Positions 26,110-44,592 of a stretch of 64,000 nt of DNA are shown one piece after another. Made by a program: the position numbers and the translations under genes. The notes beneath the pieces are model-generated. The model ran no database searches. It worked only from the letters and a program-made list of their open reading frames with translations, and had not been told where the DNA came from. Within the stretch, counting starts at the first letter, position 1, and the number at the start of each line of letters is the position of its first letter. Source of the stretch: an uncultured Gammaproteobacteria bacterium (GTDB taxonomy: Bacteria > Patescibacteriota > Patescibacteriia > Veblenbacterales > UBA10138); contig CAYVOI010000001.1 of NCBI GenBank assembly GCA_964453605.1, forward strand, positions 21,182 to 85,181. Direction: 5' to 3'.

Positions 26110-27672
26110 ATGGGGTTGTTACAGTGGCTCAACGCGAAGCCTGGGCGGTGGCTGGTGGTGGTCGGCGTTTGTGCGCTGGCCGTGTTTGGGTACCTGCAGC
26201 CACCGGGTATATTTACTGATCCCGATTCCTTTTACCACCTGAGGCTTACGACCATGCTGCGGGATGGCGGTTTGGTTAGGGATTTTCCGTGGACCCAAGC
26301 CGCACTCTACAAAAACATTTTTATCGACCACCATTTTGGCTACCACCTCTTGCTCTTACCGTTTGTCAGTGTGCTGCCAGAGTTTGCCGGCATGCAGGTG
26401 GCCACGGTGGTATTTGCAACATTCTCGGTGCTGGTGGTGGCCTGGTGCCTCAAGCGCTGGAAGGTGCCGTACTGGGGTGTTGGGGTACTCGTGCTCCTAA
26501 CTTCGAGCCCGCTCCTGTTTCGCCTGTCACTGGCTAAAGCGCCGTCTATTGGTGTCGGGGTAGCATTTGTAGCGTACTACCTCATTATTGAGCGGCGTCT
26601 GGGGTGGTTGTTCTGGTGGACGTGGTTTTTTACCTGGCTCTACAGCGCCTGGCCCTTAACGATTGTTATGGCCGGCGTGTACCTTACCATTGATGCACTT
26701 AATGTTAATAAAGTAAGCTTTAGCGCGGCGTGGCAGAGGCTCTGGCGAGTGGAAAATGTAAAACTTATGGGCGTAGTGGCGGCAGGGTGTGTGGCTGGGC
26801 TTGTTATCAACCCGTACTTTCCCACCAACTTACTCTACTTAAAACAGCTTTTTACCATGGCGCTGGTAGCTTACCACAAGTTTATTGGCATTGGGGCCGA
26901 GTGGTACCCCTACGACCCGTTTGAGCTGCCGGCGCACGTTTCCTACCCGCTTCTGGTTTGGTTGCTCGCGACCGTAGCTGGCCTGTTTAGCCTCAAGCGC
27001 CAGAGCACTATGGCTCGCACCAGCTGGGCGATGACGCTTATATTTTTAGCTTACACGTTTCGGGCTCGGCGGCAGGTGGAGTACCTGGTGCCCTGGCTGG
27101 TGCTATCGAGCAGCCTGACCCTCAGGGATTGGGTAGGGAGTGACCTTAGAGCTGCCTGGGCTAGCCTTAAAGCCAAGGCCGACAGTTGGCAGCCAGACTG
27201 GCTTAAGCGGCGGGTGGTGCGCGGCGCTATCGGGCTCTACTTGCTTATTTTTATTCCCGTCGGGCTCTGGCATGGTGTGGAATCAACGCAAGAAGCACTA
27301 CGCGATGGGTTTACTTTTGGTACGCTCCGAGGTGCATCCACATGGCTCAAACAGAACACGCCAGCACATTCGATTGTGTTTCAAACTGACTGGGGAACGT
27401 TTCCCATGCTGTTCTACTACAACACCCACAACTATTACTTGACCGGCCTGGACCAGACATTCATGTACGAGCACAACCACGACCTGTACTGGGCCTGGGT
27501 GAACACCACCTCCGGCGACCGATCAGACGCCTACCACGTGGTGCACGACTTATTTGGTGCGTCCTATGTACTGGTGGAGAAGCGCGTCGGCATCATGCTC
27601 CGGGTGCTGCAGCACGACCCCAGGTTTCACAAGGTGTATGAGGACAAGGAGGCGCTGGTCTTTGCGCTCTAA
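26110..27672 (+). CDS. Polytopic membrane protein (520 aa, about 13 TM); putative GT-C glycosyltransferase
   Basis: First extracytoplasmic loop carries FTDPDSFYHLRLT, reminiscent of the DPxFxxR loop motif of STT3/ArnT-type GT-C enzymes. Embedded in the glycosylation cluster. Confidence 0.5.
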   Translation: MGLLQWLNAKPGRWLVVVGVCALAVFGYLQPPGIFTDPDSFYHLRLTTMLRDGGLVRDFPWTQAALYKNIFIDHHFGYHLLLLPFVSVLPEFAGMQVATVVFATFSVLVVAWCLKRWKVPYWGVGVLVLLTSSPLLFRLSLAKAPSIGVGVAFVAYYLIIERRLGWLFWWTWFFTWLYSAWPLTIVMAGVYLTIDALNVNKVSFSAAWQRLWRVENVKLMGVVAAGCVAGLVINPYFPTNLLYLKQLFTMALVAYHKFIGIGAEWYPYDPFELPAHVSYPLLVWLLATVAGLFSLKRQSTMARTSWAMTLIFLAYTFRARRQVEYLVPWLVLSSSLTLRDWVGSDLRAAWASLKAKADSWQPDWLKRRVVRGAIGLYLLIFIPVGLWHGVESTQEALRDGFTFGTLRGASTWLKQNTPAHSIVFQTDWGTFPMLFYYNTHNYYLTGLDQTFMYEHNHDLYWAWVNTTSGDRSDAYHVVHDLFGASYVLVEKRVGIMLRVLQHDPRFHKVYEDKEALVFAL

Positions 27673-27682
27673 ACCGCTAGCT

Positions 27683-28432
27683 ATGTCGGAAAAGTACCCT
27701 GGGGTTAAGGCGGTTGCGGTACTGCCCGCCTACCACGCCGTGCATACACTGGCCCAAACGCTGGCTGATGTACCAGGTGGCTGGATTGATGAAACAATTT
27801 TAGTTGACGACGCAAGTCACGACGGCACCGCTGAGCTCGCCCGGTCTTTGGGGCTCACGGTATTCGAGCACCCTAAGAACTTAGGCTATGGCGGCAATCA
27901 AAAAACCTGCTACCGTGAAGCGCTGAAGCGCGGGGCCGATATTGTCATCATGATTCACCCTGACCACCAGTACGATCCACGCCTTGTGCCCGAGCTGCTG
28001 CTCCCGCTCATTCGCGGCGATGCTGACGCGGTGTTTGGCTCGCGCATGATGCTCCCGGGCGGAGCCCGTAAAGGTGGCATGCCGTTCTGGAAGTATGTCG
28101 CCAACATTGCCCTCACCAAACTTGAGAACTTGGTCTTGGGGCTCCAGCTCACTGAGTACCACTCGGGGTTTCGCGCTTACTCGCGGCGAGCGCTCGAGGG
28201 CGTGAACTTTCAGGCCAATTCCGACGATTTTGTCTTCGACACCGAAATCATCATTGAGCTCAGGCTCAAGGGTTTTCGTATTCAAGAGGTACCCATTACT
28301 ACACGCTACTTCAAGGGCGCTTCTATGATCAGCTTCCGCCGTAGTGTGCAGTATGGGCTTTCTATTCTCCAAAACCTGGGGCAGTACCTGCTCTTTCGCC
28401 TCCACCTTAAGTCTTATGGCAAGTTCTGTTAG
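27683..28432 (+). CDS. GT2 glycosyltransferase, polyprenol-phosphate hexose synthase type (DPM1/GtrB-like)
   Basis: VDDASHDGT and a DxD-type catalytic core. ATG at 27683 (MSEKYPG). Confidence 0.8.
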   Translation: MSEKYPGVKAVAVLPAYHAVHTLAQTLADVPGGWIDETILVDDASHDGTAELARSLGLTVFEHPKNLGYGGNQKTCYREALKRGADIVIMIHPDHQYDPRLVPELLLPLIRGDADAVFGSRMMLPGGARKGGMPFWKYVANIALTKLENLVLGLQLTEYHSGFRAYSRRALEGVNFQANSDDFVFDTEIIIELRLKGFRIQEVPITTRYFKGASMISFRRSVQYGLSILQNLGQYLLFRLHLKSYGKFC

Positions 28433-28455
28433 CGTGCTATAGTGCGCTAAGGTTT

Positions 28456-29724
28456 ATGGCAGCTCTGTTCAGTCTTGTAACTCAGCTCAGGCGTGTGCCG
28501 CTTTCTCCCCGCCGCGCGTTCCTACCGGCTACGTTCGCCGTTCTAGTGTTGGTTATGCTTAGCTTGGCGGCCATGGCCAACTTTACCTTTACCCTGGCGC
28601 AGCACTTTACGTACCTAGCCGAGGCTCTACTCAAGGGTAAGCTCTACTACCTTGAGCTGCCCCTCCCGCGTTGGAATGATATCGCCTGGTACGGCGGCCA
28701 CGCCTACTGGCCCCTGGGACCCTTCCCCGCTGTACTGCTTACACCCTTTGTGTACCTGTTCAGTCTGGTCCACGCTCCGTTCTACCAGGGCTACCTCCAG
28801 TTCCCCCTCGTGCTCGTAACCCTGTACCTTGTGTACCGGCTGGCGCGGTTGGTGGGGTACCACCAAGGTGATGCTTGGTACCTGGGCTGTACATTCTTTT
28901 CCTCCGCGTTTTTCTTCTACGCCTGGGCGCCTACCAGTTACTACATGGCCCACGTGGTGGTCGCCGTCCTCTGGTTCGCTGCCCTCACCGAATACCTTAC
29001 CCGTAGGCGCTACTGGTTTCTAGGGTTACTCTGCGGTCTGGCGCTTACTACTCGCTTGCCAGCGGGTTTGGGCATCGCTTTCTTTGGGCTCGAGCTGTTG
29101 TTTGACAGAACCACCACCACAGGGTTACGCTGGCGCCGCCTAGGTGAACTCGCCACCCCGTTTGTAGTTATGGCCCTCCTCCTCTTGCTCTACAACTACG
29201 CCCGCTTTGGCAGCATCTTGGAGCAGGGGTACTCGTACCAAATCGCCCTAGTCTCGGCAGTTCGGCGTGCCCGTGACTACGGCCTCTTCAGCCTCATTCA
29301 CCTGCCTGGCAACCTCTACTACCTCTTCCTCGCAGCCCCCCAACCCGTATTTCGCGACGGCCTGTCCCATGTGTTGAAGTTCCCCTACCTGAAGCCTGAC
29401 CTCTGGGGTATGAGCATTTTTATCACCTCGCCCTACCTACTCTACCTCTTGGCTCGTCAGACCTGGGACAGAACAGCCACGTGCCTGCTCCTCAGCTGTG
29501 GTATCATCGCCCTCCCCATCCTCCTCTACTACGGCATTGGCTACCAGCAGTTTGGCTACCGCTACGCCCTGGACTTCATGCCCCTACTCTACTTCCTCTT
29601 CCTTAGGCAGTACCGCCTCCAGCACGCCAGGTTGTCGGAGGGGATGAAGGCACTCATGGTAGGGTCGGCCGTGCTCAACCTGTACCTGTTTGTGGGTGTT
29701 TACCTGACCCTGTTCGCGGTTTAG
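28456..29724 (+). CDS. Polytopic membrane protein, GT-C-like mannosyltransferase family, tandem paralogue A (422 aa)
   Basis: Multi-TM protein with the HAYWPLGPFP loop motif. Shares two 100%-identical nucleotide blocks with paralogue B. Confidence 0.6.
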   Translation: MAALFSLVTQLRRVPLSPRRAFLPATFAVLVLVMLSLAAMANFTFTLAQHFTYLAEALLKGKLYYLELPLPRWNDIAWYGGHAYWPLGPFPAVLLTPFVYLFSLVHAPFYQGYLQFPLVLVTLYLVYRLARLVGYHQGDAWYLGCTFFSSAFFFYAWAPTSYYMAHVVVAVLWFAALTEYLTRRRYWFLGLLCGLALTTRLPAGLGIAFFGLELLFDRTTTTGLRWRRLGELATPFVVMALLLLLYNYARFGSILEQGYSYQIALVSAVRRARDYGLFSLIHLPGNLYYLFLAAPQPVFRDGLSHVLKFPYLKPDLWGMSIFITSPYLLYLLARQTWDRTATCLLLSCGIIALPILLYYGIGYQQFGYRYALDFMPLLYFLFLRQYRLQHARLSEGMKALMVGSAVLNLYLFVGVYLTLFAV

Positions 29725-29742
29725 CCCTCTTAGTTTATTTGT

Positions 29743-30993
29743 ATGCAGCGCCTGCAGGATAGGATTCAGCTGGTAGCACAGGTAAGCTTACGCGAGCTTG
29801 CCCCCGTGTTCGTTGGTGGGGTGCTTCTGCTCGTTGTGGGCATACTGAATATGGTTTTGTCTGGGGGTGCACAGCAGTACTCGTACCTAGCCCAAGCTTT
29901 TCTCCGTGGTCAGCTGTATTTTTTGACTGACCCATGGTACCACTGGGTTGATACTGCAGCCTGGGCCGGCCACGCCTACTGGCCCCTGGGACCCTTCCCC
30001 GCTGTACTGCTTACACCCTTTGTGTACCTGTTCAGTCTGGTCCACGCTCCGTTCTACCAGGGCTACCTCCAGTTCCCCCTCGTGCTCGTAACCCTGTACC
30101 TTGTGTACCGGCTGGCGCGGCTCTTGCGGTTCTCTGGTTTAGATGCGCGTTGGCTCGTCCTGGCCTGGTTTACCTCGACCTACTTTTCTATAGCTAGTTT
30201 CCCGATCAGCTACTTTTTTGCCCATGTGGTGGCTGTTACCCTCTTGTTTGCAGCACTCTATGAGTACCTGACCTGGAGACGGCACTGGCTTTTAGGGGTT
30301 TTGTGTGGTTTACTGCTTGCCACGCGTGGGCCAGCTGGTTTAGCAGTCACCTTTTTTATGTTCGATGCCTTGCTCAAGAGTGACAAGTCGTGGCGCGAGT
30401 ATCTTGGACAAACCCTGGAACTGGTAGCACCGTTTGTAGTTATGGCCCTCCTCCTCTTGCTCTACAACTACGCCCGCTTTGGCAGCATCTTGGAGCAGGG
30501 GTACTCGTACCAAATCGCCCTAGTCTCGGCAGTTCGGCGTGCCCGTGACTACGGCCTCTTCAGCCTCATTCACCTGCCTGGCAACCTCTACTACCTCTTC
30601 CTCGCAGCCCCCCAACCCGTATTTCGCGACGGCCTGTCCCATGTGTTGAAGTTCCCCTACCTGAAGCCTGACCTCTGGGGTATGAGCATTTTTATCACCT
30701 CGCCCTACCTACTCTACCTCTTGGCTCGTCAGACCTGGGACAGAACAGCCACGTGCCTGCTCCTCAGCTGTGGTATCATCGCCCTCCCCATCCTCCTCTA
30801 CTACGGCATTGGCTACCAGCAGTTTGGCTACCGCTACGCCCTGGACTTCATGCCCCTACTCTACTTCCTCTTCCTTAGGCAGTACCGCCTCCAGCACGCC
30901 AGGTTGTCGGAGGGGATGAAGCTTTTACTGCTTGGCTCTGGGCTCGTGAACCTTTACCTCTTTGGTACTGTGTACCACATTTTACTCGGTTGA
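29743..30993 (+). CDS. Polytopic membrane protein, GT-C-like, tandem paralogue B (416 aa)
   Basis: Same architecture as paralogue A. The blocks at 29968-30120 and 30430-30921 are identical to 28696-28848 and 29158-29649. Confidence 0.6.
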   Translation: MQRLQDRIQLVAQVSLRELAPVFVGGVLLLVVGILNMVLSGGAQQYSYLAQAFLRGQLYFLTDPWYHWVDTAAWAGHAYWPLGPFPAVLLTPFVYLFSLVHAPFYQGYLQFPLVLVTLYLVYRLARLLRFSGLDARWLVLAWFTSTYFSIASFPISYFFAHVVAVTLLFAALYEYLTWRRHWLLGVLCGLLLATRGPAGLAVTFFMFDALLKSDKSWREYLGQTLELVAPFVVMALLLLLYNYARFGSILEQGYSYQIALVSAVRRARDYGLFSLIHLPGNLYYLFLAAPQPVFRDGLSHVLKFPYLKPDLWGMSIFITSPYLLYLLARQTWDRTATCLLLSCGIIALPILLYYGIGYQQFGYRYALDFMPLLYFLFLRQYRLQHARLSEGMKLLLLGSGLVNLYLFGTVYHILLG

Positions 30994-30999
30994 AATTGT

Positions 31000-32190
31000 A
31001 TGAAGTTGTTACCATACCATAACGTACCGGTTGGAACGCGGGTTGCCTACGTGGCTGTGGCTGGCCTAGTCTTATGGTCTGGCCTGAGCTACCTCTGGCC
31101 TACGGTACCTGCCTGGCACCACAATGCCATTAACGTATTTCGCGAAGATGTTGACTTTACCACCTACTTCTCTAACCTCGGCTGGCTACAACCAGGAGAG
31201 TTTTTGCTCCACCATGGCTATGCTGAGTATCCTGTGCTGGGTTTGCTCTACGTTAACTGGCCACACTACCTAACCCAGAGCTTTGAGGCCTACCACTGGC
31301 TACTGTGGTTCAGTAATGCTGCTCTACTCGTCCTGAGTATGTGGCTGTGGTTCGGTATAGCTAAGCAGCTCGAGCTCTCGCGCGGCGGCTGGTGGTTGTG
31401 GCTCTTGCCGTCGAGCTTGTACTTTAGCTTGAATCGGTTTGATATTTTCCCCGTCGCCTTAGTGCTCCTGAGTTTGTACTTGTTGGCAAAACGTCATGTG
31501 CGCTTGGCGTGGGTGGTGTACGGGTTAAGTATCATGGCTAAGGTGTACCCGGTGTTCTTGTTGCCGTTCATGTGGCAGCTTTCCCGTGAGCGTGGTGGTA
31601 CGTGGGGCGCCATGATTACCTACACCCTAAGCCCTATTGTTGGATTACTTTTTGGTTTGTACGCTGTGGGCGGGTTCGAAGCTGTAGTAGTGCCGTTCAT
31701 GCTCCAGTTCGGGCGGGCGGTAGACTACGGTAGCCTGCGTGGGGTAGCCGTACAGCTGGGGTTAGGGGTTTCACTGTGGTCGCTACTCTGGTCGTTTGGT
31801 CAGGTACTCTTGCCAGTGTGGTGGGGCTTACGCACGGTGTTTAGTCGCACGCCACTGCCATACCTGGCCGCCATCAGCCTGGCTGCGCTTAGCCTGCTGC
31901 TGCTTACTAACCTGTCCCCCTTCTACTCTAACCAGTGGTGGTTATGGGTCCTGCCATTTGTAGCCTGGGTACTGCCCGCGCCAGAACGAGTGCTGGCGCT
32001 GCTCTATGATTTGGTAAACTATGTACAGTTTCCCTTAGCGTTTGAGCTAGCTGGCAAAACAGGTGGGGTATTTGCTCTGGTGGTTGCTATTCGCGGGGCA
32101 CTCCTCGTTTGGTTACTGGTAGCGTTATGGCAACAGCTTCCTAAGGGTTGGTGGCGTATTGAACCTCTATGGGTACGGTTTGGATTGTAG
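31000..32190 (+). CDS. DUF2029/GT87-like polyprenol-phosphate-mannose-dependent mannosyltransferase-family membrane protein
   Basis: Multi-TM protein with a NRFDIFP...AKVYPVFLLP pattern typical of GT87/DUF2029. Confidence 0.5.
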   Translation: MKLLPYHNVPVGTRVAYVAVAGLVLWSGLSYLWPTVPAWHHNAINVFREDVDFTTYFSNLGWLQPGEFLLHHGYAEYPVLGLLYVNWPHYLTQSFEAYHWLLWFSNAALLVLSMWLWFGIAKQLELSRGGWWLWLLPSSLYFSLNRFDIFPVALVLLSLYLLAKRHVRLAWVVYGLSIMAKVYPVFLLPFMWQLSRERGGTWGAMITYTLSPIVGLLFGLYAVGGFEAVVVPFMLQFGRAVDYGSLRGVAVQLGLGVSLWSLLWSFGQVLLPVWWGLRTVFSRTPLPYLAAISLAALSLLLLTNLSPFYSNQWWLWVLPFVAWVLPAPERVLALLYDLVNYVQFPLAFELAGKTGGVFALVVAIRGALLVWLLVALWQQLPKGWWRIEPLWVRFGL

Positions 32191-32879
32191 TACCAACCTA
32201 CAACGAGCGATTGAACATTACTGAGCTTATAGCGCGAACTTTTGCTGCGCTGCCGATGTGTCAGCTCCTCATTGTTGATGATAACTCACCCGATGGCACA
32301 GGTGTGTTGGTTCGAGAGCTTCAGGCACAGCACCACAACTTGCACCTGCTTGAGCGTTCAGGAAAACAGGGCTTGGGTAGCGCCTACCGCGCCGGGTTCC
32401 GCTACGCCCTGGAACACGGGGCCGGGGTGGTTGGGGAGATGGACGCTGATTTGTCCCACAACCCAGCGGATTTACCAAGGTTATTGAATGCTGTTGAGCG
32501 TGGTGCTGATGTGGTCATAGGTTCGCGTCGTGTGCCAGGTGGTCGGGTGGTAGGTTGGAGTTGGCACCGCCACCTGATGAGCTGGGGGGCCATGGCTCTA
32601 GCTCGTGCGGCACTGGGGCTGACCACGCACGACGTTACCTCAGGCTTCCGTCTGTATACAAAAAAAGCCCTGACGGCTATTCCATGGGCAAAGGTGAAGA
32701 GTGATGGCTATGCCTGGCAGGAGGAGTTGCTGTTCTTGTGCGAGCGCGCAGGGCTAGGGGTGGCTGAGGTGCCGGTAGTATTCGTTGACCGTAGTAGTGG
32801 TGTCTCCAAGCTCAATATTGGTAATGTGATTGAATTCTTCGCCACGGTACTTAGACTCAAGCGTTCTCTTCAAAAATAG
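32169..32879 (+). CDS. Polyprenol monophosphomannose synthase (GT2, Ppm1/DPM1-like)
   Basis: VVPTYNE...VDDNSPDGT...GSR motifs. Overlaps the upstream gene by 22 nt. Confidence 0.8.
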   Translation: MGTVWIVVPTYNERLNITELIARTFAALPMCQLLIVDDNSPDGTGVLVRELQAQHHNLHLLERSGKQGLGSAYRAGFRYALEHGAGVVGEMDADLSHNPADLPRLLNAVERGADVVIGSRRVPGGRVVGWSWHRHLMSWGAMALARAALGLTTHDVTSGFRLYTKKALTAIPWAKVKSDGYAWQEELLFLCERAGLGVAEVPVVFVDRSSGVSKLNIGNVIEFFATVLRLKRSLQK

Positions 32880-32903
32880 CGGCGCTCAGTCCGCCATTTA
32901 TTT

Positions 32904-33308
32904 CTACTGGGGTGGCCCGGTGGCGGTGTAGAGGTTAGAGACGATGAAGTACGAAATAGCGTAGGCGGTAAAAATTATCGCCAGACCAATCACCGCGCCA
33001 GCCAACAACTTTTTAGCTTTACTAATTTTTTCTTCGTTACCAGCCGAGGTCATCCACATAGCACCAGCGTAGATAACAAGTACAACCGCCGCCACACCCG
33101 TGACGCTTAAGACTACGTTAATGATGTTGGCAGTGACAGCAGCTGGTGAGGGCTGGCTGGTGGGGAGCCCTGCCAGGTTGGCGGTTTCTGTGAGCCCATA
33201 GTCAGGTGGCAGATCAGCACTACTAGCGGCCAGCGCGAACGAGAACAGGAGCATGGCGCTGGCCGCTAGGAGACTGCCCAACCGCTGTCGGCGGTTTGGG
33301 GTTTGCAT
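32904..33308 (-). CDS. TrbC/VirB2-like pilin-fold small secreted membrane protein (134 aa)
   Basis: Signal peptide, then two hydrophobic helices separated by the SAGNEEKISKAKKLL loop. Confidence 0.6.
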   Translation of the reverse strand: MQTPNRRQRLGSLLAASAMLLFSFALAASSADLPPDYGLTETANLAGLPTSQPSPAAVTANIINVVLSVTGVAAVVLVIYAGAMWMTSAGNEEKISKAKKLLAGAVIGLAIIFTAYAISYFIVSNLYTATGPPQ

Positions 33309-33316
33309 ACGAAGAG

Positions 33317-33709
33317 TTAGCCTCTGGCTGAAGTTGCGTTGGCGAGCTGCGTGACGATGAAGTAGGCCAAAGCGTAGGCGACAAAGATAATAACCAGACC
33401 AACCACCCCAGCGCCCAAGAGCTTCTTGGCTTCGCCAATCTTTTCCTCATTACCCTGGCTTGTCATCCACTTGAAACCACCAATCAGAATAAGCACCACC
33501 GCAATAACACCGAGGAACCCCAGGAGGATGTTGATGATGTTGGCTACGGTCTGCACCACTGGTACGTTGGTACCGAGGTTAGTGGCAGCACCGAAGTTGT
33601 TAAAACCAAAGTTGGCTTCACCCTGGATACCGGCGGCCAAAACCATAGCGGGCACGGCGTACAGAGCAGTGGAGGCTGCTACTGTTAGGAATTTCTTCAT
33701 AACTTTCAC
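33317..33709 (-). CDS. TrbC/VirB2-like pilin-fold protein (130 aa)
   Basis: Signal peptide; loop motif TSQGNEEKIGEAKKLL between two TM helices. Confidence 0.6.
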   Translation of the reverse strand: MKVMKKFLTVAASTALYAVPAMVLAAGIQGEANFGFNNFGAATNLGTNVPVVQTVANIINILLGFLGVIAVVLILIGGFKWMTSQGNEEKIGEAKKLLGAGVVGLVIIFVAYALAYFIVTQLANATSARG

Positions 33710-33861
33710 CTCCTTTCTCTTGCTCCCAGACCTCGTTTGGTTACCTTGCGTAGCCAGATGAAGAATGGGTTAAGATGAACTGTTAAAATTATACTAACTT
33801 GGTATCTAACCGTCAAACAGTTGCCTGGCTCTAGCTATTGCTACCCAACCTGAGGCCTGGT

Positions 33862-34557
33862 TTAGCTTTGGGTGAGGATGTGGTAGAACGGTCCGTAGAC
33901 AAAGCTGATGAAGATGTACGAGCTCATGACCACTACCAGGCCGATGGTAGCGTAGAGCAGGGTCCGTTTGGCTTTGGCCACGCGTTCTTCGTTGCCAGCC
34001 GAGGTCAGCCAGAGCGTACCACCGTAGACGAACATCAGAATGCTTACGCCCGCCAAGCCCGACAGGATGAAGCCCAACAACCGCTGGCCAAAAAAGACAA
34101 AGCCAGCCTGCTTGGTTGGTAGCTGGTTGAGGTTGAGCGGGTCTATGAGCACGGTGTTGGTGCTGAAGGCTGGTGGCCCAGCGGTGCCGGTGAGTACGGT
34201 AATGGTGGTTGCGAGTATGGCGTAGCTGCCCACGGTTAAGATGAGCCCTAAGATGGCGTAGGTTATCATCTGCTTGCCTTTTTGGAAGTGCTCACTATTG
34301 CCGCCAGCGCTCAGAATGCGGTACCCGCCAAGGATAATAAAAAAGAGTGCCAGGGCGCCGGTTATAAAGTTAATGCCACTGGCTACGCGACCAAAAATTT
34401 CCCACACCGTGACCGTGCCCAGGGGGTTCTGGAGTGCTGTGGGTGGCGTGGCGGCATCATCTGCTCGCGCTGCCAGCGGTATGAGCTGTAAGCCCACAGC
34501 AGTTATAGTCGTGAGGGCTGTTCGTAGTAGGTGCTTCAAGTTCGGGTAGCTGAGCAT
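33862..34557 (-). CDS. Duplicated TrbC/VirB2-like protein (231 aa, two pilin modules)
   Basis: Two copies of the helix / AGGNxE..K.K loop / helix unit (SAGGNSEHFQKGKQ and TSAGNEERVAKAKR). Confidence 0.6.
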   Translation of the reverse strand: MLSYPNLKHLLRTALTTITAVGLQLIPLAARADDAATPPTALQNPLGTVTVWEIFGRVASGINFITGALALFFIILGGYRILSAGGNSEHFQKGKQMITYAILGLILTVGSYAILATTITVLTGTAGPPAFSTNTVLIDPLNLNQLPTKQAGFVFFGQRLLGFILSGLAGVSILMFVYGGTLWLTSAGNEERVAKAKRTLLYATIGLVVVMSSYIFISFVYGPFYHILTQS

Positions 34558-34560
34558 ACG

Positions 34561-35253
34561 TTAGTTGGTGTAGCAGCACTTCAGGTTGTTGGTACAGTAG
34601 CCTGCTTTTTCTGTGTAGGTGGTAGTTGGTGTGCAGTCTGGTAGGCAGGTGTAGGGGTGTGTGGGGTCGCTGGTTAGCGAGCTGCAGGCACGCTGGCCAC
34701 AGGTCTCATCAAAACAGACTAAATCTTCGCCGGTGTCGCCACACGGCGTGCCGTCAGCCTTACCGCGGCAGAACTCGGGGTTAGTTGGCGCCACCGTGCA
34801 CTGCGCCTCCCACCAGGAACTACCAAAGAGTTTTTTGCTTAGGGGCTGGCCTTGGGGGGTGATGAGTATGCCCACTACAACGTTTACAATGAAGTAGCCC
34901 CCCAGCACAATGGCCACACCTACGAGCGTGGCAGTAATGATGCCCTTACCCTTACTGACCCGTTCTTGGTTGCCAGCGGCGCGAATGATGCTCTGCCCGC
35001 CCCACACCAGCATGATGAGGGCTAGCCCGCCAAACAGGGACAGGATAACCTTTTGTAGTACCACCATAAGCCCCACGAAGTCGCACCAGGTACAGTTGCC
35101 GTTCTCGCGGCAATCTTTAGCTAAATTACCAACAATGCCGTTAGTGAGGTTGAAGGCTTGGGCCGAGTGGCTGGGGAGCAGTGGTAGGACTACCGCTGCT
35201 AGTATGGCGACACTAATGAGCGTGCCCAAGGTACGGCGGCGAGACGCGGTCAT
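34561..35253 (-). CDS. TrbC/VirB2-like module fused to a C-terminal Cys-rich (14 Cys) domain (230 aa)
   Basis: RAAGNQERVSKGKG loop module, followed by CTVAPTNPEFCRGKADGTPCGDTGEDLVCFDETCGQRACSS...CLPDC...CCYTN. Confidence 0.6.
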   Translation of the reverse strand: MTASRRRTLGTLISVAILAAVVLPLLPSHSAQAFNLTNGIVGNLAKDCRENGNCTWCDFVGLMVVLQKVILSLFGGLALIMLVWGGQSIIRAAGNQERVSKGKGIITATLVGVAIVLGGYFIVNVVVGILITPQGQPLSKKLFGSSWWEAQCTVAPTNPEFCRGKADGTPCGDTGEDLVCFDETCGQRACSSLTSDPTHPYTCLPDCTPTTTYTEKAGYCTNNLKCCYTN

Positions 35254-36626
35254 AGTGTTACCTTGGCTAAGGTTTGGGTAACCTGTTGGGCGGCAAAATC
35301 CAGCGCCTCGGTAAGGCTCGTACCACTGTCAACGCGGCGGATGAGGTCGAGCATGAACCCCTGGGCCGCCCCCGGGTTGTAGCCCCGGTACCAGGCGCGA
35401 GCGCTGAGGAGCTGCTTCGCTGGCACTGACAGGTCGGGGTCTTGCGTTTGCGCCTGGTACAGCTGGCGCTCGGCCGTGGGGAGCTTAGAATCTGCTACGT
35501 ACTTTTGAGCTTCTTCCGGGCGCACGGCAAAGTGCACAAACCCCCAGGCCTCATTTTGGTACTGGCTCTGCCGCGTAACCGCCGCCACGTTGTAGCTCGC
35601 CAGGTAGGCCGGTCGCACCGTGTTGTCAATCTGCGGGAAGTTGGCCACACCTACCGTAACGCGAGGTGAGCTCTGCTGTAAGCTCTGGTAGTCGCGCCAG
35701 TAGCCAAAGGTGAAGCCGACGCGACCCTCGGCAAAGGCCGTCCAGGCGGGGGGCTCGTCTTTGGACCAGCTGTAGGTTTCCTTGCTCGGGTTAGCAAAGT
35801 CGGTGTAGAACCGCACCGCATCTGCTCCTGGTGAGTAGGTTTCGCCGCCCACCGTGACCTGTTGGTTAAAGGTCGCGCGCGTACCACCGCTGTCCACCAT
35901 TGGCGTGTTGTTCTGTAGCATGAGGGCGGCTAGAATGTCAGCGGCGTAGGGTACGTTGTCAGCCTCACCTAAGCTCGTGCCGCTCTGTAAGAGCCGCCCC
36001 TGCTTGTCGATGCGGGTTATCTTCTGCGCCGCGTTTTTGAAGTCGGTCCAGTTTGCGGGCGGGGTGGCGAAGCCGGCGGCGTTGAGGAGGTCATGGTTGT
36101 AGAACATGACTAGACTGTCGAGGCTCAGGGGGAAGCCGTAGACCTTACCGTCTATCACCACGTCAGGCGGCACCGCGTCAACGAACAGGTCTTGCACAGC
36201 TCGGAGGTCCATGGTAGGCACGGTTTTGAGCGTAGCCGTAGGCTCTTTCTTAATCACACCTTTAAGCTCCAGGAACGGCAGCGTCAGGTTTGGCGGCAGG
36301 GGCAGCAGGTAATCTTGCCAGGCCCTTAGGGAAGTATTCGGTAGCGTGATGAGGTCAGGGCCCTGGGATGCCGCCAGGGCCCTGAGCAGGGTTTGCTCAA
36401 ACTCCTCCGGGCGTACCTGACGGTAGTGGATAGAGATGTTGGGGTGAACCGATTGGTAGTCTGCCAGCACGAGTTTTGTCCCAGCGGGCAGCGCCTCAGT
36501 CCCCCACCAGTTGAGCGCTACCGGCGGCGCGTTGAAGGGTTTCTTGCAGCCTAGGCCAGCCAGGCTTAGGGTGGCGAGGAGTAGGCCCAGGGCGTAACGG
36601 TGGGGGTGGCGAGGTTGGAAGCTCAT
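35250..36626 (-). CDS. Extracellular solute-binding lipoprotein (ABC-transporter family-1 substrate-binding protein, sugar type)
   Basis: Lipobox LSLAGLGC; SBP_bac_1-like length and composition. Confidence 0.65.
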   Translation of the reverse strand: MSFQPRHPHRYALGLLLATLSLAGLGCKKPFNAPPVALNWWGTEALPAGTKLVLADYQSVHPNISIHYRQVRPEEFEQTLLRALAASQGPDLITLPNTSLRAWQDYLLPLPPNLTLPFLELKGVIKKEPTATLKTVPTMDLRAVQDLFVDAVPPDVVIDGKVYGFPLSLDSLVMFYNHDLLNAAGFATPPANWTDFKNAAQKITRIDKQGRLLQSGTSLGEADNVPYAADILAALMLQNNTPMVDSGGTRATFNQQVTVGGETYSPGADAVRFYTDFANPSKETYSWSKDEPPAWTAFAEGRVGFTFGYWRDYQSLQQSSPRVTVGVANFPQIDNTVRPAYLASYNVAAVTRQSQYQNEAWGFVHFAVRPEEAQKYVADSKLPTAERQLYQAQTQDPDLSVPAKQLLSARAWYRGYNPGAAQGFMLDLIRRVDSGTSLTEALDFAAQQVTQTLAKVTL

Positions 36627-37489
36627 ACTACTGATTGTAGGTACTTAGCGAAGGCTTCGGCAAGTTCCGGGTGCCCGAGCCCTAAGGCTACATTGGCTTT
36701 GAGCCACCCCAGCTTACTGCCTAGGTCGTAGTAGGTACCTTCTATTTTACAGGCGTAGACTGGCCGCACCCCACTGAGTTTGGCAATAGCATCTACCAGC
36801 CAAACTTCACCGCCGCGGCCAGGGGTAGTGGCCGCTAGGTGGTCAAAGATGTCGGGCGTCAGTACGTAGCCTCCCAAAGACGCTAGCCGCGAGGGCGCCG
36901 CTCCCGGCCCTGGTTTTTCTATGATGCTATCAACCTGGTAGACGTTGTCCTCCAGCTGGTGCGACTTTATGATGCCGTACTTTTGTGTGCCTTCGTCATC
37001 CACCTCGTAGCCCGTGAGCACTGGCCCGTGGTAGCGTTCGTACACGTCAATCAGTTGTTTAAGCCTGGGCGTTGTACTAAAAATAGGCTCGTCACCCCAA
37101 ATAACGGCGAATGGTTCGTCGCCTATGAGGTGCCGCGCGTTCAGGATGGGCGTGCCGTTACCGTAGGGACCTTTCTGTCGGATGAAGATAAAGTTAGCTA
37201 TATCGGCAATCTGCTTTACCTCTTTGAGCGCGCCAGTCTTGCCCTGCTTCTCGAGCCACGCCTCAAGCTCGGTGGAGTGGTCGAAGTGGTCCTCCACTGC
37301 GCGCTTGGTGGCGCTCGTCACCATGATAATGTCCTCAATGCCGCTCGCCACCGCCTCTTCGACAATGTACTGCAGTATAGGCTTATCAACCACTGGTAGC
37401 ATTTCTTTAGGCTGCGCTTTGGTGGCGGGTAAAAAGCGCGTGCCGTAGCCCGCCACTGGGATGATGACTTTGCGAATTGGTTTTGGCAT
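36623..37489 (-). CDS. galU: UTP--glucose-1-phosphate uridylyltransferase
   Basis: IIPVAGYGTRFLPATKAQPKEMLPVVDKPILQY N-terminal signature. Confidence 0.9.
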   Translation of the reverse strand: MPKPIRKVIIPVAGYGTRFLPATKAQPKEMLPVVDKPILQYIVEEAVASGIEDIIMVTSATKRAVEDHFDHSTELEAWLEKQGKTGALKEVKQIADIANFIFIRQKGPYGNGTPILNARHLIGDEPFAVIWGDEPIFSTTPRLKQLIDVYERYHGPVLTGYEVDDEGTQKYGIIKSHQLEDNVYQVDSIIEKPGPGAAPSRLASLGGYVLTPDIFDHLAATTPGRGGEVWLVDAIAKLSGVRPVYACKIEGTYYDLGSKLGWLKANVALGLGHPELAEAFAKYLQSVV

Positions 37490-37669: not shown

Positions 37670-38908
37670 TTATTGCAATAGTGACAGCAATGCTCTGAGC
37701 GCGGCTTGCTCGCTCGTTACATTCGGACTTACTGCCCGAAGTTCTCGCAAGACCGTATCAATCTTGCCGTCAATGGTTGTCCACATTGCCGGGTCTTTCG
37801 GCTTCAGCCGCGCCTGCGCGTTGTCCCATTCGTATTCCAAATCGCCAATACGTGTTGTAGCGGCAGCTTGGTTGCCGGCATGCAAGAGGTCAAGCGTATC
37901 TTGGGTAATAGTTCGGAACGCGGACAAGTCACCCAGGGGAGAGTTTTGTGACGACTTTGCCATGCCGTTTGGGTTGTTGGTTTGGCTAGTTGCGGCAGGG
38001 GCTTGCAGTGCTGACTGGCGAACATGGTAGCCAACCAGCCCGGCGATAGCAAGTACTGCCACCACCACGGCTGTTTGCCACAGACCATCTCGGCTCGCAT
38101 CTTCAGCGATTTCTGCCTTGATCTCCGCCTTGGGTTCCTTTTCAATAACGTCGCGCTTGGTTACGGAAAGGTATGCCACTATCGCCAGAATGCCGCCGAC
38201 GAAGATGAAGCTGGTGATAGTTGCGCCGAGCCCCAGGCCGCCGTACTTGTGGGGCTGTGAAAGGTAGTCGCCAATCGAAGCCCCGAGTGGTCTGGTTAAT
38301 ATATAAATCATCCAGAATGACAGAACTGGATTAAGCTTCAACCGCCAGCCAATGGTGAACACCGCAATAAGCCCGGCGATAATAAAGCCAGTTGTGGCGT
38401 AGCCGAGCGCCAGGCCCTCCGCCATGAGGTCGCCGGCAGCTGTGCCGAGTGCGAAAGTAAAGAGAATTGCAAGCCAGTAAAATGCTTCCCGCCGTGATGT
38501 AAAAATCGAGTGGATGGAAAGTGTTTTTTCAAAGTAGTACCAAATGAGGAACGTAGCGGCCAAAAGAATACTGAAAATAATCGTGCTCGTTTCCAGCGGC
38601 ACGCCGATTCTATCGGTCAGGTTGTCGGTTACCAGTGTGCCGAATACGCTAATGAGCATCACCGAAATCCAGTAGGTAGTGGGAATGTACTTTTTGGCTC
38701 GGAATTGGAAAAAGAGGGCCACGGCCAGCAATACTCCGGTTACTATGGACGTCCCCGTTAGCCCGAAGTTCAGGTTGACGTTCAGGAAGTCGGCGGCTGT
38801 TTCCCCGACGGTCGTGCACATAATTTTAATAAACCAAAACCAGAGTGTAATTTCTGGCACTTTGTTGAGCATGTGCCCGCCCAATGAGGCTGAATTTTCT
38901 TTTGTCAT
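37670..38908 (-). CDS. Hypothetical membrane protein with four internal ~50-aa repeats (each W..T.G...D.L...) and a ~150-aa C-terminal soluble domain
   Basis: Repeats contain GETAADFL / TDNLTD / GTAAGDLM / GASIGDYL. No family recognised. Confidence 0.55.
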   Translation of the reverse strand: MTKENSASLGGHMLNKVPEITLWFWFIKIMCTTVGETAADFLNVNLNFGLTGTSIVTGVLLAVALFFQFRAKKYIPTTYWISVMLISVFGTLVTDNLTDRIGVPLETSTIIFSILLAATFLIWYYFEKTLSIHSIFTSRREAFYWLAILFTFALGTAAGDLMAEGLALGYATTGFIIAGLIAVFTIGWRLKLNPVLSFWMIYILTRPLGASIGDYLSQPHKYGGLGLGATITSFIFVGGILAIVAYLSVTKRDVIEKEPKAEIKAEIAEDASRDGLWQTAVVVAVLAIAGLVGYHVRQSALQAPAATSQTNNPNGMAKSSQNSPLGDLSAFRTITQDTLDLLHAGNQAAATTRIGDLEYEWDNAQARLKPKDPAMWTTIDGKIDTVLRELRAVSPNVTSEQAALRALLSLLQ

Positions 38909-40971: not shown

Positions 40972-41225
40972 GATGCTGTCATTTTAGATCTTATTATTTA
41001 CGGAAAGACTCACCTAAGCAGGTGGGGCTTGTCCGATAAAAAGTTTGCCTGGCGGAGAGGGAGGGATTCGGCTTTACCTCTCGTCCGCCCGTCGGCGGAC
41101 TCGGGCTAGCCACCGCCTCGTGGTGCCACCTGGTGGTGGCACATCACTCCGGCGTTCTCACCCCACCGCACCACAAGCAGTTGTGGTGCTCCTCTCCGAA
41201 TGCTGTCCACGTGGTGGACCCCATT

Positions 41226-41312
41226 CGGAGAGGGAGGGATTCGAACCCTCGATAACCTTTCGGCTATACAGGTTTTCGAGACCTGCGCCTTCAACCACTC
41301 GGCCACCTCTCC
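41226..41312 (-). tRNA. tRNA-Ser(CGA), long variable arm, no encoded CCA
   Basis: GGAGAGGTGGCCGAGTGGTTGAAGGCGCAGGTCTCGAAAACCTGTATAGCCGAAAGGTTATCGAGGGTTCGAATCCCTCCCTCTCCG. Confidence 0.85.
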
Positions 41313-41368
41313 GTGAGCTCTACATCGTTTGTAGAGCGTTCACAGTATACGAACGGGGACTAGCTGTG

Positions 41369-42775
41369 TCAATGTAGGTCTGCTAGGACTGCAGTTAGTC
41401 TGTGGGGCACGAGGTTCAGCTTCCAAAGTGCGCCAAGGTACAACACTGCGCCCACTACTAGTTTGCCTACTAAGGGTAGTGGCAGTAGCAGCCCGAGGGC
41501 TAGCACCAGTGTGGCCAGTCCGATCTTCGGCCAACGAGCAGTAGAGAGTTTGAGTCCACGTCGCCAGAGAATGCTGAGCATAGCTAAGTTCACCGCCACC
41601 TCAAGCGCGACCGTGACCCAAGCCGCGCCCCAGTACGAGTAGCGTGGAATAAAGACCAGGTACCCCACTACCCCCCCGAGCGCCCCCCAGGCAAACACCG
41701 GTATGTTGCTCCGCTGGTACCCGAGCGCAAAAATGGCGTAGCCCGCAGCATTGCCGACGAATGAGGCTAGAATGGCGAGGCTGAGGATAGCTAGTATGTC
41801 ACCTGACACGGTAAAGTTAGCCCCAGCTATGGCGCCAATGAGCGAGTGGCCAACCAGCACCGAGCCCACTACCACAGCTAGCCCGGCAGCAAGCAAAGTG
41901 TCAGCTGCACCGATGTAGAGTGCTCGTATGGCGCCATGGTCCTGTTGCGTTTGGGCTTTTGCCAAGAGCGGGAGCAGCAGCCCACCGATAATGGCAGGCA
42001 GAGCCAAGAGCGCTTCGAGCATGCTGTAGGCTACACCGTAGAGCCCAACCTCGGCTGCTGGCCGCACTAGTGACAGCACCACCGTATCTCCCTTGAAGTA
42101 GATAACGTTTAGGGTAGTGGTCAGCGCCACTGGCCAGGTGGCGCGCCAGAGTTCAGCCCAGACCGCGGAGTCAATCCGCCAACCAAAGGGTACTAGGCGG
42201 CGGGCGGCCACCAAGTTCACCGCGGTAATGGTTAGATTGGCCACGATGAGTACAAGGAGGTACGCAGTGGGATTAGCCTTACCACTCCAGGCTACTGCCA
42301 TAGTGCCGCCTAGGAGGAGTGCGCGGCTGCCAAGTTCAAGCCAGGCTAGTGTAGTGCTCCTGAGCTTAGCCTGGTATATGCTGGTGAGCATTTGCCCAAT
42401 GCACGCGGCCCAAAACGCTACGGTGGTGAGCGTGATGCCGGACACTATAACGCTAGGGTACCCTAAGATCACCGCTACCAGTGGTGCCATAGCAAAGGCA
42501 GCGGTGGCTGTGGTTACGCGAAAGCTTAGGGCGTTACTGAGTAGTACCTCGGGCGGCAGTTTGCCGCTCCCCAGTTCCCGCGACACCGTCATGCTAAACC
42601 CTAAGCCCACGAGCAGTGCCACCAGCTGCAGGAACGCTACCACGGTGGTGTACTGGCCATAGCCAGCGGGACCTAAGGTCCTCGTCATCAGTCCCACTAC
42701 CACAATGCCTACAGCGAGGCTGACGGCACGGCTCATGAGCTGAATGCTGGTTTGGCGAGCAAGAACGTTGAACAT
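41369..42775 (-). CDS. Oligosaccharide/lipid-II flippase-family protein (Wzx/MurJ-like MOP superfamily), about 14 TM
   Basis: Polysaccharide-biosynthesis-protein-like polytopic architecture. Start ATG at 42773-42775 (MFNVLARQ). Confidence 0.6.
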   Translation of the reverse strand: MFNVLARQTSIQLMSRAVSLAVGIVVVGLMTRTLGPAGYGQYTTVVAFLQLVALLVGLGFSMTVSRELGSGKLPPEVLLSNALSFRVTTATAAFAMAPLVAVILGYPSVIVSGITLTTVAFWAACIGQMLTSIYQAKLRSTTLAWLELGSRALLLGGTMAVAWSGKANPTAYLLVLIVANLTITAVNLVAARRLVPFGWRIDSAVWAELWRATWPVALTTTLNVIYFKGDTVVLSLVRPAAEVGLYGVAYSMLEALLALPAIIGGLLLPLLAKAQTQQDHGAIRALYIGAADTLLAAGLAVVVGSVLVGHSLIGAIAGANFTVSGDILAILSLAILASFVGNAAGYAIFALGYQRSNIPVFAWGALGGVVGYLVFIPRYSYWGAAWVTVALEVAVNLAMLSILWRRGLKLSTARWPKIGLATLVLALGLLLPLPLVGKLVVGAVLYLGALWKLNLVPHRLTAVLADLH

Positions 42776-42782
42776 AGTGCGG

Positions 42783-43112
42783 TTAGGTTGTGTTGCTGGT
42801 CGGGTGCCAGAGGTAGCGGGTGAGGTCAACCCCAAAATTACCATCGCGTCCGCTGACCTCAACACCTTCGGCCGTAAGCAGTGCGGCTTGCTCCTCTTTT
42901 GTAGCGCGCCTGTTTTCAATCGAGATCATGCCCTCACGGTTGACTACCCGTTGCCAGGGGACATCTGCGGGACAAACGTTCAGGGCCCAGCCCACCAGCC
43001 GCGCCCCGCGTGGTTTGCCTAACAGTGCTGCCACTTGGCCGTAGGTTGCAACTTTGCCTTGTGGAATGGCACGCACCAGCTGGTAGACTGCTTGGTAAAA
43101 ATCATTCCCCAT
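42783..43112 (-). CDS. Alkyltransferase-like protein (ATL; O6-alkylguanine-DNA alkyltransferase DNA-binding-domain homologue without the catalytic Cys)
   Basis: Helix-turn-helix YGQVAALLG, followed by VPWQRVV where Ogt/Ada proteins have PCHRV. Trp replaces the acceptor Cys, as in ATL proteins. Confidence 0.7.
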   Translation of the reverse strand: MGNDFYQAVYQLVRAIPQGKVATYGQVAALLGKPRGARLVGWALNVCPADVPWQRVVNREGMISIENRRATKEEQAALLTAEGVEVSGRDGNFGVDLTRYLWHPTSNTT

Positions 43113-43167
43113 TAACCGTAAGTATAGCAAACCCCCGCCTTTTGAGGCGGAGGCAGCGTGCGTTCAG

Positions 43168-43238
43168 AGCGGGTAGCGGGAGTCGAACCCGCCTCATCAG
43201 CTTGGAAAGCTGAGGTAATACCGCTATACCATACCCGC
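43168..43238 (-). tRNA. tRNA-Gly(TCC), no encoded CCA
   Basis: GCGGGTATGGTATAGCGGTATTACCTCAGCTTTCCAAGCTGATGAGGCGGGTTCGACTCCCGCTACCCGCT. Confidence 0.8.
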
Positions 43239-43240
43239 TC

Positions 43241-43450
43241 TCAGGGCACGCGCTTGCCAGAGGTGGTGCCGTGCAGAGCGTTTTCTTTTTTCGCCAGGTC
43301 TACTCTCAGCGCTTGCCAGAACCCGCCCTGGCTCGGCGGCGTATTAGTAGAGAGCACTTGGTTGTAGAGCCAGAGCCCGTAGATGGTAGCCATGGCCAGT
43401 ACGGTGGCGAGGAGTACAAGTACGGTGTCACGGCCGCGGTGTTCCAGCAT
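43241..43450 (-). CDS. Possible small membrane protein (69 aa)
   Basis: One TM helix, tightly packed between the secreted-protein gene and tRNA-Gly. Weak support. Confidence 0.3.
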   Translation of the reverse strand: MLEHRGRDTVLVLLATVLAMATIYGLWLYNQVLSTNTPPSQGGFWQALRVDLAKKENALHGTTSGKRVP

Positions 43451-43455
43451 AGGCT

Positions 43456-43851
43456 CTAGCGAACTCCCCTAGGCTTGGCTGGGTTCGTGCGCGTGAGGGC
43501 GATGTTTACCCTGCCCGTCAGGATGTCGATGCGTGCAGCGGTGATGATGTCGCCCTCTCTAACCCCCGTTACCTTGAGGTACTGCTTGAGCCTTAAGCTT
43601 TTGGCGCTCACCTGTTTTTTGCCGAGCCAAATTTGGGTTTGGTCATCTACCAACACAGGGTCATCAACTTGTCGCTTCCCCTCGGGGTGGATGATGGTGA
43701 CAATTTGCCCACTAATACCGGTTACCTTGCCGCGCGGTACAACTACCGTGTAGCTGCTTCCCGCCGTGTCAGTAGGTAGCTGGGCATAGGCTGGGCTCAG
43801 GCCCTGCAGCAGTAGCACGGTGCTTAGGGCAAGTGTACTATAGAGTTTCAT
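43456..43851 (-). CDS. Hypothetical secreted protein (131 aa) with an N-terminal signal peptide
   Basis: MKLYSTLALSTVLLLQGLSPAYA signal, then a beta-rich region. Confidence 0.5.
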   Translation of the reverse strand: MKLYSTLALSTVLLLQGLSPAYAQLPTDTAGSSYTVVVPRGKVTGISGQIVTIIHPEGKRQVDDPVLVDDQTQIWLGKKQVSAKSLRLKQYLKVTGVREGDIITAARIDILTGRVNIALTRTNPAKPRGVR

Positions 43852-43947
43852 ACGAACGTTCGTTAGGAGTGACTATGGTGCCGAGGGCCACCCCGAAGTG
43901 GAGCTAAGCTCACTTCGGGGCAGGGAATCGGACACTACTCTACAGTG

Positions 43948-44019
43948 TGCCTGGGGTCAGAATCGAACTGACGACGCCAGCCTCTTCAGGGCTGCGCTCT
44001 ACCACTGAGCTACCCAGGC
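43948..44019 (-). tRNA. tRNA-Phe(GAA), no encoded CCA
   Basis: GCCTGGGTAGCTCAGTGGTAGAGCGCAGCCCTGAAGAGGCTGGCGTCGTCAGTTCGATTCTGACCCCAGGCA. Confidence 0.85.
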
Positions 44020-44113
44020 ACACTGTAGAGTATGATTGTTGTGAAATGTCTACTACTGCGCTAACGCCGTGCTCCTTGCCCCGTAGGGAACGAGCCTAAG
44101 CGAGTTCTCCTTC

Positions 44114-44137
44114 GGGGTACCACTGAGCTACCTCGGC
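44114..44137 (-). other. Truncated tRNA 5' fragment (acceptor plus D-arm only) upstream of tRNA-Phe
   Basis: Minus strand reads GCCGAGGTAGCTCAGTGGTA, then diverges into an unrelated hairpin. Compare the tRNA-Phe 5' end GCCTGGGTAGCTCAGTGGTAGAGC. Confidence 0.5.
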
Positions 44138-44148
44138 CTGTGGAAGTA

Positions 44149-44490: not shown

Positions 44491-44592
44491 GGTTCGTATT
44501 GTTAATCGTCGGGGTACTGGGGTTTGTCGCCCCTTCGGGAGATCACCCGTAGGGTGAAACCCAGGACCTGCCCGTAGAATTTTGGTCGGGGA

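Follow-up and report, generated by a model that had tools for sequence, protein, structure and literature searches.

Arrays of small proteins with Sec signal peptides, encoded beside VirB4 and VirB6, were described in Saccharibacteria in 2020 (PMC7427843). McLean et al. took the 'Sec-secreted array' of TM7x to be a set of small secreted proteins analogous to Ptx (PMC7427843). In 2023 the arrays of S. epibionticum were re-read as predicted pilins in a type IV secretion system (T4SS) cluster and were reported to be essential (PMC10633639). A 2025 survey of 3,035 genomes with the pilin families PF18895 and PF04956 (Quinonero-Coronel et al.) found 441 arrays of 2-11 genes with a mean identity of ~25%, and pilin arrays were present in 383 Patescibacteria assemblies (PMC12102498). 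VirB2-like pilin arrays of Patescibacteria are already published (2020, 2023, 2025), and we found another such array in a 64-kb stretch of contig CAYVOI010000001.1 (64,000 nt; referred to here as the window). It is part of a six-gene operon at 32904-37489 on the minus strand. We think it likely that this operon is the pilin module of a patescibacterial (candidate phyla radiation, CPR) T4SS and that, in this lineage, the module is detached from the T4SS core genes. The array is headed by galU and a gene for a solute-binding protein (SBP). This galU-SBP head is found on pilin arrays across many CPR lineages and is apparently unreported, and so possibly new.

The operon consists of six open reading frames (ORFs), at exactly the coordinates given in a preliminary description of this DNA. 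In order of transcription they are galU, encoding UTP--glucose-1-phosphate uridylyltransferase (36623-37489); a gene for a MalE-like (family 1) solute-binding lipoprotein (35250-36626); and four genes for small proteins, pilA (34561-35253), pilB (33862-34557), pilC (33317-33709) and pilD (32904-33308). The identities first given to the two head genes held up. The galU product scored 333.1 bits against TIGR01099 (cut-off, 326.8 bits) and matched PF00483. The lipoprotein matched SBP_bac_1 (PF01547, 88.4 bits) and SBP_bac_8 (PF13416, 89.2 bits), with E values of ~1e-25. Tight packing by overlaps of 3-4 nt had been described for the whole operon. We found it for galU, the SBP gene, pilA and pilB only: galU/SBP and SBP/pilA overlap by 4 nt, and pilA and pilB are separated by a 3-nt gap. 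In contrast, 152 bp separate pilB from pilC (161 bp counted to an ATG at 33700), and 8 bp separate pilC from pilD. The end of pilD is 24 bp from the convergent gene for a family 2 glycosyltransferase (GT2), which ends at 32879, as originally reported.

We found that the four small proteins together hold five PF18895 (T4SS_pilin) units. Each protein begins with a hydrophobic segment that has AXA at its end, and two hydrophobic helices come after it (hydropathy scan). The unit, of which there are five copies, is a hydrophobic helix, an (S/A)(A/G/Q)GNxE loop and a second hydrophobic helix. These AXA sites and motif copies bear out the signal peptide and helix/loop/helix unit first noted in each protein. 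On PF18895 (gathering score, 26.6 bits), pilB scored 57.5 bits over two stretches, pilC 34.4 bits and pilD 32.2 bits. For pilA we used a profile of 26 CPR pilins that had been built with pilA left out, and the match had an E value of 2.8e-16. The 27 homologues of pilA have conserved Cys positions, and many of them have precomputed PF18895 matches. Among NCBIfam models, the one matched best by pilB, pilC and pilD was NF045849, a pilin-like family of Mycoplasma integrative and conjugative elements (ICEs); the scores were 29-37 bits (pilC, 37.3 bits), all below the cut-off of 40 bits. Across the ORFs of the 64-kb window, a hidden Markov model of the pilin unit had no match outside the operon, and the motif is not a product of chance. 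Profile similarity to VirB2/TrbC-like pilins was thus found when Pfam was run on each paralogue, and these results support placing pilA-pilD in the VirB2/TrbC-like pilin superfamily. Fold searches against solved pilins (VirB2, TraA, TrwL) gave no match and were non-discriminating, and the profile of 26 CPR pilins found no pilin among PDB sequences. Because neither search gave a pilin, the tie to classical VirB2 is one of profile similarity and not of structure.

We also considered type IV pilins, which have a class III signal peptide, and rejected them. The four proteins had no N_methyl (PF07963) match at E<=1, and their signal peptides end in AXA.

We compared the operon with related loci (numbered L002 to L041 here) that were taken from SBP scans of genome and metagenome collections and from SBP homologues on long contigs; all counts include near-duplicates. 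The order galU-SBP-pilins was conserved. An array of 3-8 PF18895 genes was directly downstream of the SBP orthologue, on the same strand, in 19 of the 20 loci with downstream DNA; in the exception, L041, the array is 3.6 kb from the SBP gene and inverted. The junction of SBP and array was kept down to 25-33% SBP identity. As a negative control, we looked at 15 loci with only weak SBP similarity (L020-L034), and none (0/15) had pilin genes. galU was directly upstream of the SBP orthologue in 18 of the 20 related loci with upstream DNA. In the remaining two, a gene for a SAM-dependent methyltransferase takes its place (L008, 6385-6969; L010, 222-806). In our reading, the MalE-like lipoprotein and GalU are encoded by conserved accessory genes of the pilin module.

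The operon runs directly into a T4SS core in two of the related loci. In L038 (GCA_016294905.1) and L039, genes for Hsp20, GalU, the SBP, 6-7 pilins and two TrbL/VirB6 proteins are followed, all in one direction, by an uncharacterised gene, PrgI, a TraC-like gene, VirB4 (DUF87/AAA_10/P-loop_TraG) and Peptidase_M23. A VirB6-like gene is also downstream of the array in L004 and L007. In L035, L036, L037 and L040 the array is detached, with no T4SS core gene within +-10 kb. We read the operon in the window as a T4SS pilin module because the orthologous galU-SBP-pilin operons of L038 and L039 continue into the core.

Several results weigh against this reading. Pfam scans of most of the larger ORFs, with the window ends checked, found no VirB4, VirB6, PrgI or VirD4 in the 64-kb window, and tblastn with CPR VirB6 proteins found nothing in it. 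A VirB6-profile search of low sensitivity returned no protein from the 876,493-bp contig on which the proteins of the window are recorded. pilA scored 18.8 bits on PF18895, below the gathering score. On PF04956 (TrbC; gathering score, 27.9 bits), pilC scored 23.9 bits (E=4.9e-5) and pilD 20.7 bits (E=4.9e-4), both just below threshold, and there was no match for pilA or pilB. Because of these TrbC scores we file the proteins under the sister family PF18895 and not under TrbC proper, and the pilin-fold call first made for them stands on PF18895. Finally, T4SSs of monoderms are normally without pili, and pili in Patescibacteria have been treated as a possibility only (PMC12857230).

The lack of T4SS genes nearby had led the preliminary description to propose a lineage-specific surface filament or adhesion system, one that would work autonomously, without T4SS machinery. 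The lack of core genes is confirmed for the window and has its parallel in the +-10 kb around the four detached arrays. The proposal drawn from it is contradicted by the orthologous operons, which are joined to the full core in L038 and L039 and to VirB6 in L004 and L007. The paralogue types are also widely shared, and the operon has no link to any other assembly ATPase. Separation of pilins from the core is common in the group: VirB4 was found in 2,417 of 3,035 assemblies (about 80%), and of the 1,948 assemblies with both, pilin genes were near virB4 in 1,135 and away from it in 813 (PMC12102498). We therefore regard an autonomous filament as very improbable, and the absence of a T4SS neighbourhood in these genomes should not be taken as a new system. 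The window is a piece of patescibacterial chromosome close to the replication origin; the origin region is at 11326-15576 and contains yidC (minus strand), dnaA (13000-14349) and dnaN (14467-15576). The operon is ~19 kb from dnaA, which fits the published remark that patescibacterial T4SS genes are often near dnaA (PMC12102498).

The lipoprotein resembles oligosaccharide-binding proteins. It has a lipobox-like sequence (...LAGLGC), and Cys27 is invariant in 45 homologues. The AlphaFold2 (AF2) model (mean predicted local distance difference test score, pLDDT, 93.5) has a two-lobe binding-protein fold. The best Foldseek matches were gluco-oligosaccharide SBPs, with target-normalised TM scores of 0.75-0.81, 16-19% identity and E values of ~1e-22. 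Aligned by hhalign with E. coli MalE, it gave a probability of 95.9%. Many aromatic residues are invariant, and the invariant LM(L/M)QN aligns to E153-Y155 of MalE. These invariant residues hint at sugar binding. The subfamily also has a conserved insertion of ~25-35 aa (…LTLPFLELKGVIKKEPTATLKTVPT…), which AF2 models as a protruding beta-hairpin at residues 113-137; neither MalE nor the L004-type orthologue has this insertion. All SBP homologues with a source name were from Patescibacteria. The nearest one found was from a metagenome-assembled genome of Ca. Veblenbacteria (54% identity).

A canonical oligosaccharide-SBP fold, a galU gene for making UDP-glucose and a neighborhood rich in glycan-synthesis genes might also indicate an operon for sugar uptake and UDP-glucose supply, with the pilin genes adjacent by chance. 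However, no ABC permease or ATPase gene (BPD_transp, ABC_tran) was found near the SBP gene, either in the scanned ORFs of the window or within +-10 kb in L035-L037, L040 and L041; a partner permease could be encoded elsewhere in the genome. A chance junction is also hard to reconcile with its retention, 4-nt overlaps included, in 19 of 20 loci, some of which have SBPs of only 25-33% identity, or with the lack of pilins at ordinary SBP loci (L020-L034). We consider this explanation very improbable.

We found no mention of an SBP, galU or NTP_transferase tied to a pilin array in the array literature or in targeted full-text searches, which covered text but not figures and some supplementary tables.

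The preliminary description had presented the paralogues as a lineage-specific elaboration, and our comparisons do not bear this out. The order A-B-C-D, with one-to-one orthology, is found in the window and in L002, L005 and L035, and partly in L036. The SBPs of the relatives with this positional orthology are only ~50% identical. Because the positional orthology spans such relatives, the four paralogues are, as judged by these comparisons, old and specialised and not lineage-specific duplicates. Cross-scores between paralogues were 17-87 bits, compared to 250-527 bits for self matches. With four genes and five units, the operon falls within the published definition of such arrays, as sets of 2-11 diverged paralogues with a mean identity of ~25% (PMC12102498). 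At more distant loci, the A-type pilin tends to stand first.

Two members had been described as internal duplications. This is correct for pilB (231 aa), in which PF18895 matches two stretches and which is a fused tandem of two diverged pilin units. It is not correct for pilA, in which a single unit is followed by a Cys-rich tail. Within pilB, the two units are strongly diverged from each other and are orthologous unit-for-unit among relatives: they pair like-with-like with those of L002, L005 and L035 (79-110 bits, compared to 32-55 bits for cross pairs). L004 has a two-unit pilin as well, which seems to have arisen by a separate and later fusion.

pilA (230 aa) has a signal peptide, an N-terminal segment with 3 Cys, one pilin unit and a tail of ~95 aa with 11 Cys. 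It does have the 14 Cys previously assigned to a terminal domain, but this is the count for the whole protein: C48, C54 and C57 are before helix 1, and the other 11 are in the C-terminal ~95 residues. The AF2 model of pilA (pLDDT 79.8) has a helical hairpin (56-91/96-131) and a small beta-rich C-domain. By the expected topology, both Cys segments would be extracytoplasmic, and up to seven disulfides would be possible. When searched alone against 1.84 billion representatives, the C-domain had only 4 relatives, all pilA-like, and no other architecture was found.

Other members of the family in related loci are also rich in Cys. In L002, L005 and L035 the pilD orthologues end in tails that contain 4-6 Cys. 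pilB orthologues with 18 Cys are 477-506 aa long (L005, 9068-10588; L035, 12123-13556). There are also giant members, of 527 aa with 29 Cys (L003, 2823-4406) and of 390 aa with 25 Cys (L040, 13137-14309). The Cys-rich ectodomains are modular, and the PF18895 hairpin evidently anchors large, variable, disulfide-rich ectodomains.

We found a putative internal promoter ahead of the two short pilins. A sigma-70-like sequence, TTGACG-17-TATAAT, is in the pilB-pilC gap (33788-33816, minus strand) and matches 11 of 12 consensus positions; its function is predicted only. Downstream of it, ahead of pilC, there is a ribosome-binding site (RBS), AAGGAGGTGA. The gene as annotated (33317-33709) encodes a single-unit pilin of 130 aa. 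Because the GTG at 33709 falls within the RBS, pilC probably starts at the ATG at 33700 and would then encode 127 aa, the length that an independent gene call also gives. The same gap contains promoter-like sites in L002 (10/12), L005 (11/12) and L035 (9/12). pilD, also a single-unit pilin, is 134 aa. Directly after its stop, within the 24-bp gap, a terminator-like hairpin followed by a T-run (32880-32896, minus strand) was found in a pattern scan, as a consensus match only.

Based on these features, we suggest how the module could work. Each pilin would be exported by its Sec-type signal peptide, cleaved after AXA, and held in the membrane as a helical hairpin whose short charged GNxE(K/R)..K.K loop faces the cytoplasm and whose termini are both external. 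The hairpins would then be extracted, and stacked into a pilus or a wall-spanning conduit, by a VirB4/VirB6/PrgI machine whose genes would be at another site of the 876-kb genome. pilC, the candidate major pilin, and pilD would be the abundant major subunits, because they are short and have their own strong predicted promoter and RBS. pilA would present a disulfide-rich ectodomain outside the cell and pilB would be a covalently fused heterodimer of two units, and they are therefore likely to be minor, tip or adaptor subunits. Both would be made at a lower level from the galU promoter, together with the lipoprotein.

The proteins might also be associated with a T4SS without forming a pilus, as subunits of a membrane or wall channel or of a stator, or as Sec-exported surface or effector-like proteins. 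This is the main alternative to a pilus. T4SSs of the MPF-FATA type, as said above for monoderms, normally lack pili, and the Ptx-like reading of the array by McLean et al. is of this kind. Bulky, variable ectodomains of up to 527 aa (L003) and 390 aa (L040), with 29 and 25 Cys, would be hard to pack helically, and there was no fold match to solved pilins. However, profile searches relate the family to TrbC/VirB2, and its short members (101-134 aa) share precisely the hairpin layout of conjugative pilins. A dedicated promoter, predicted to be strong, ahead of the shortest ones is also in keeping with a subunit that is abundant and polymerises. We consider it unlikely, on balance, that no pilus is made. 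A 2025 review described patescibacterial systems as unique among monoderms in their potential for conjugative pili (PMC12857230).

The short pilins have a loose motif in common in their mature N-terminal segments, (N/D)(F/Y/L)GL..x..(T/A/G)(N/G)(L/F)G(T/S/N), for example DYGLTETANLAGLPT and NFGFNNFGAATNLGTN. In the products of 33317-33709 and 32904-33308 it is ~10 residues before helix 1. The motif could be a site of processing, glycosylation or packing.

Pilin glycosylation had been suggested from the short distance to the convergent gene cluster, and the comparison of loci lends this suggestion weak support. The gene next to the operon (32169-32879, plus strand) encodes a Dpm1-like GT2 of the polyprenol-phosphate sugar synthase type (PF00535, E=2.4e-30). 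Such a GT2 is found next to the array in six loci. Its gene converges on the array in the window, L002, L005 and L035, whereas in L037 and L040 the two share a strand. It is possibly linked in function with the array. A polytopic membrane protein of 520 aa (26110-27672, plus strand), with six predicted hydrophobic segments and no family match, has homologues in L035, beyond the GT2 (E=6e-151), and in L040, between the array and the GT2 (E=4e-40). The recurrent GT2 neighbor and the galU gene at the head of the operon, nearly always first, are the comparative basis for the suggested glycosylation of the pilins.

The lipoprotein and GalU may be working parts of the T4SS or pilus, and we put this forward tentatively, as a possibility that we hold to be less likely than not. 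The likeliest role of the lipoprotein would be that of a surface receptor for a glycan or oligosaccharide or of an adhesin, though it could also be an assembly factor; it would work with pilA, the Cys-rich putative minor pilin. GalU would most likely supply UDP-glucose which, by way of the adjacent GT2 and the GT-C-like membrane proteins, could be used to glycosylate the pilins or the envelope around the pilus.

Other genes around the operon are noted here. The plus-strand glycan cluster at 26110-32879 contains two GT2 genes, a GT87/PIG-M-like gene and genes for three family-less polytopic proteins (520, 422 and 416 aa), and is preceded by bact-PGI at 24760-26103. Membrane proteins of 520, 574, 422 and 416 aa had no usable Pfam match even at E<=1. 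Just upstream of galU and on the same strand, 37670-38908 encodes a DUF347 membrane protein (four repeats) with a soluble C-terminal extension of ~130 aa; this place is taken by Hsp20 in L004, L038 and L039. Eight tRNA genes (Ser, Gly, Phe, Pro, Lys, Arg, His, Arg) are among small ORFs at 41225-49883 on the minus strand. A gene for a tyrosine recombinase (Phage_integrase, 49910-50830) abuts tRNA-Arg(tct); it is a XerC/D gene or else marks the border of an integrated element. The GC content falls to 0.49 at 40-42 kb. A lone gene for a PilT/T2SSE-type ATPase (350 aa) is at 45241-46293, with no type IV pilus genes adjoining it, and a T2SSE ATPase gene is convergent on the end of the pilin array in L013 and L016. 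Beside leuS, which is cut off by the 3' end of the window, a gene for a LysM + Peptidase_M23 protein (60392-61621) stands alone; in L038 and L039 an M23 gene follows virB4.

Upstream of the Hsp20-galU-SBP-pilin cluster, and divergent from it, several loci have a gene for a large secreted hydrolase of peptidoglycan (Amidase_2 and/or SpoIID with an N_BRCA1_IG Ig-like domain). These genes are at 1841-4501 in L007, 1213-4770 in L011, 1-3874 in L038, 1184-3691 in L039, 1-34 in L036 and 316-2136 in L041. Their products could provide the missing VirB1-type wall-opening function. No equivalent hydrolase gene was seen beside the operon in the window.

In the one species tested, epibiotic growth requires the patescibacterial T4SS and its pilin array. 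Our analysis adds little on the pilins themselves, and the comparative link to galU and the SBP gene may be more useful. These two genes head the array and, in some lineages, the entire T4SS cluster. The link is a testable lead to glycan recognition or glycosylation in host engagement by ultra-small bacteria. If the lipoprotein and GalU are indeed parts of the T4SS, they would be two unrecognised, widely conserved components of a secretion system that the epibiotic lifestyle requires.

Like the TrbC/VirB2 pilins (VirB2 of the T-pilus, TrbC of RP4 and TraA of F), the proteins have a signal peptide, two hydrophobic helices and a short basic loop. Unlike them, they have a longer mature N-terminal segment (~40 aa) and a monoderm host, and there are several paralogues compared to one major pilin. 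The Mbov_0395 family (NF045849) of Mycoplasma ICEs also consists of small two-helix proteins and belongs to a monoderm conjugation system of the MPF-FATA type, but its gene is single-copy in the ICE, whereas the genes here form an array. The VirB2 arrays of Bartonella, Anaplasma and Rickettsia are likewise tandem, diverged paralogues of host-dependent bacteria, and those paralogues have been proposed to diversify surface interactions (PMC12102498). In contrast to the array described here, they belong to diderm MPF-T systems and to another Pfam family, and have no SBP or galU partner.

The lipoprotein can be compared with the oligosaccharide SBPs of ABC importers (5YSD, a sophoro-oligosaccharide SBP; 7X0K, CbpB; and 2ZYO). 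It shares their two-lobe fold and is a lipoprotein, as such SBPs are in monoderms. It differs in its low identity to them (16-19%), its extra beta-hairpin, the lack of a cognate permease gene nearby and its fixed place at the head of a pilin array. Orphan SBP lipoproteins are known from another monoderm T4SS: PrgZ and TraC of enterococcal conjugative plasmids have no permease of their own and are receptors for an external cue. They are SBPs of family 5 (OppA-like) and bind a peptide pheromone, whereas the SBP here is of family 1 and nothing about it indicates a role in signalling.

The closest systems are the other patescibacterial arrays, those of S. epibionticum (SEML1_0014-0019), of TM7x and of the 2025 survey (441 arrays). 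They too consist of diverged PF18895 paralogues with signal peptides, and are chromosomal, near the origin and with no relaxase in context. Members with Cys-rich ectodomains and a fused two-unit member, as found here, are not described for such arrays in the texts cited here. The arrangement also differs. The S. epibionticum array directly adjoins VirB6, with galU (SEML1_0181) at another site, whereas in the operon described here the core is separate, and galU and the SBP gene head the array.

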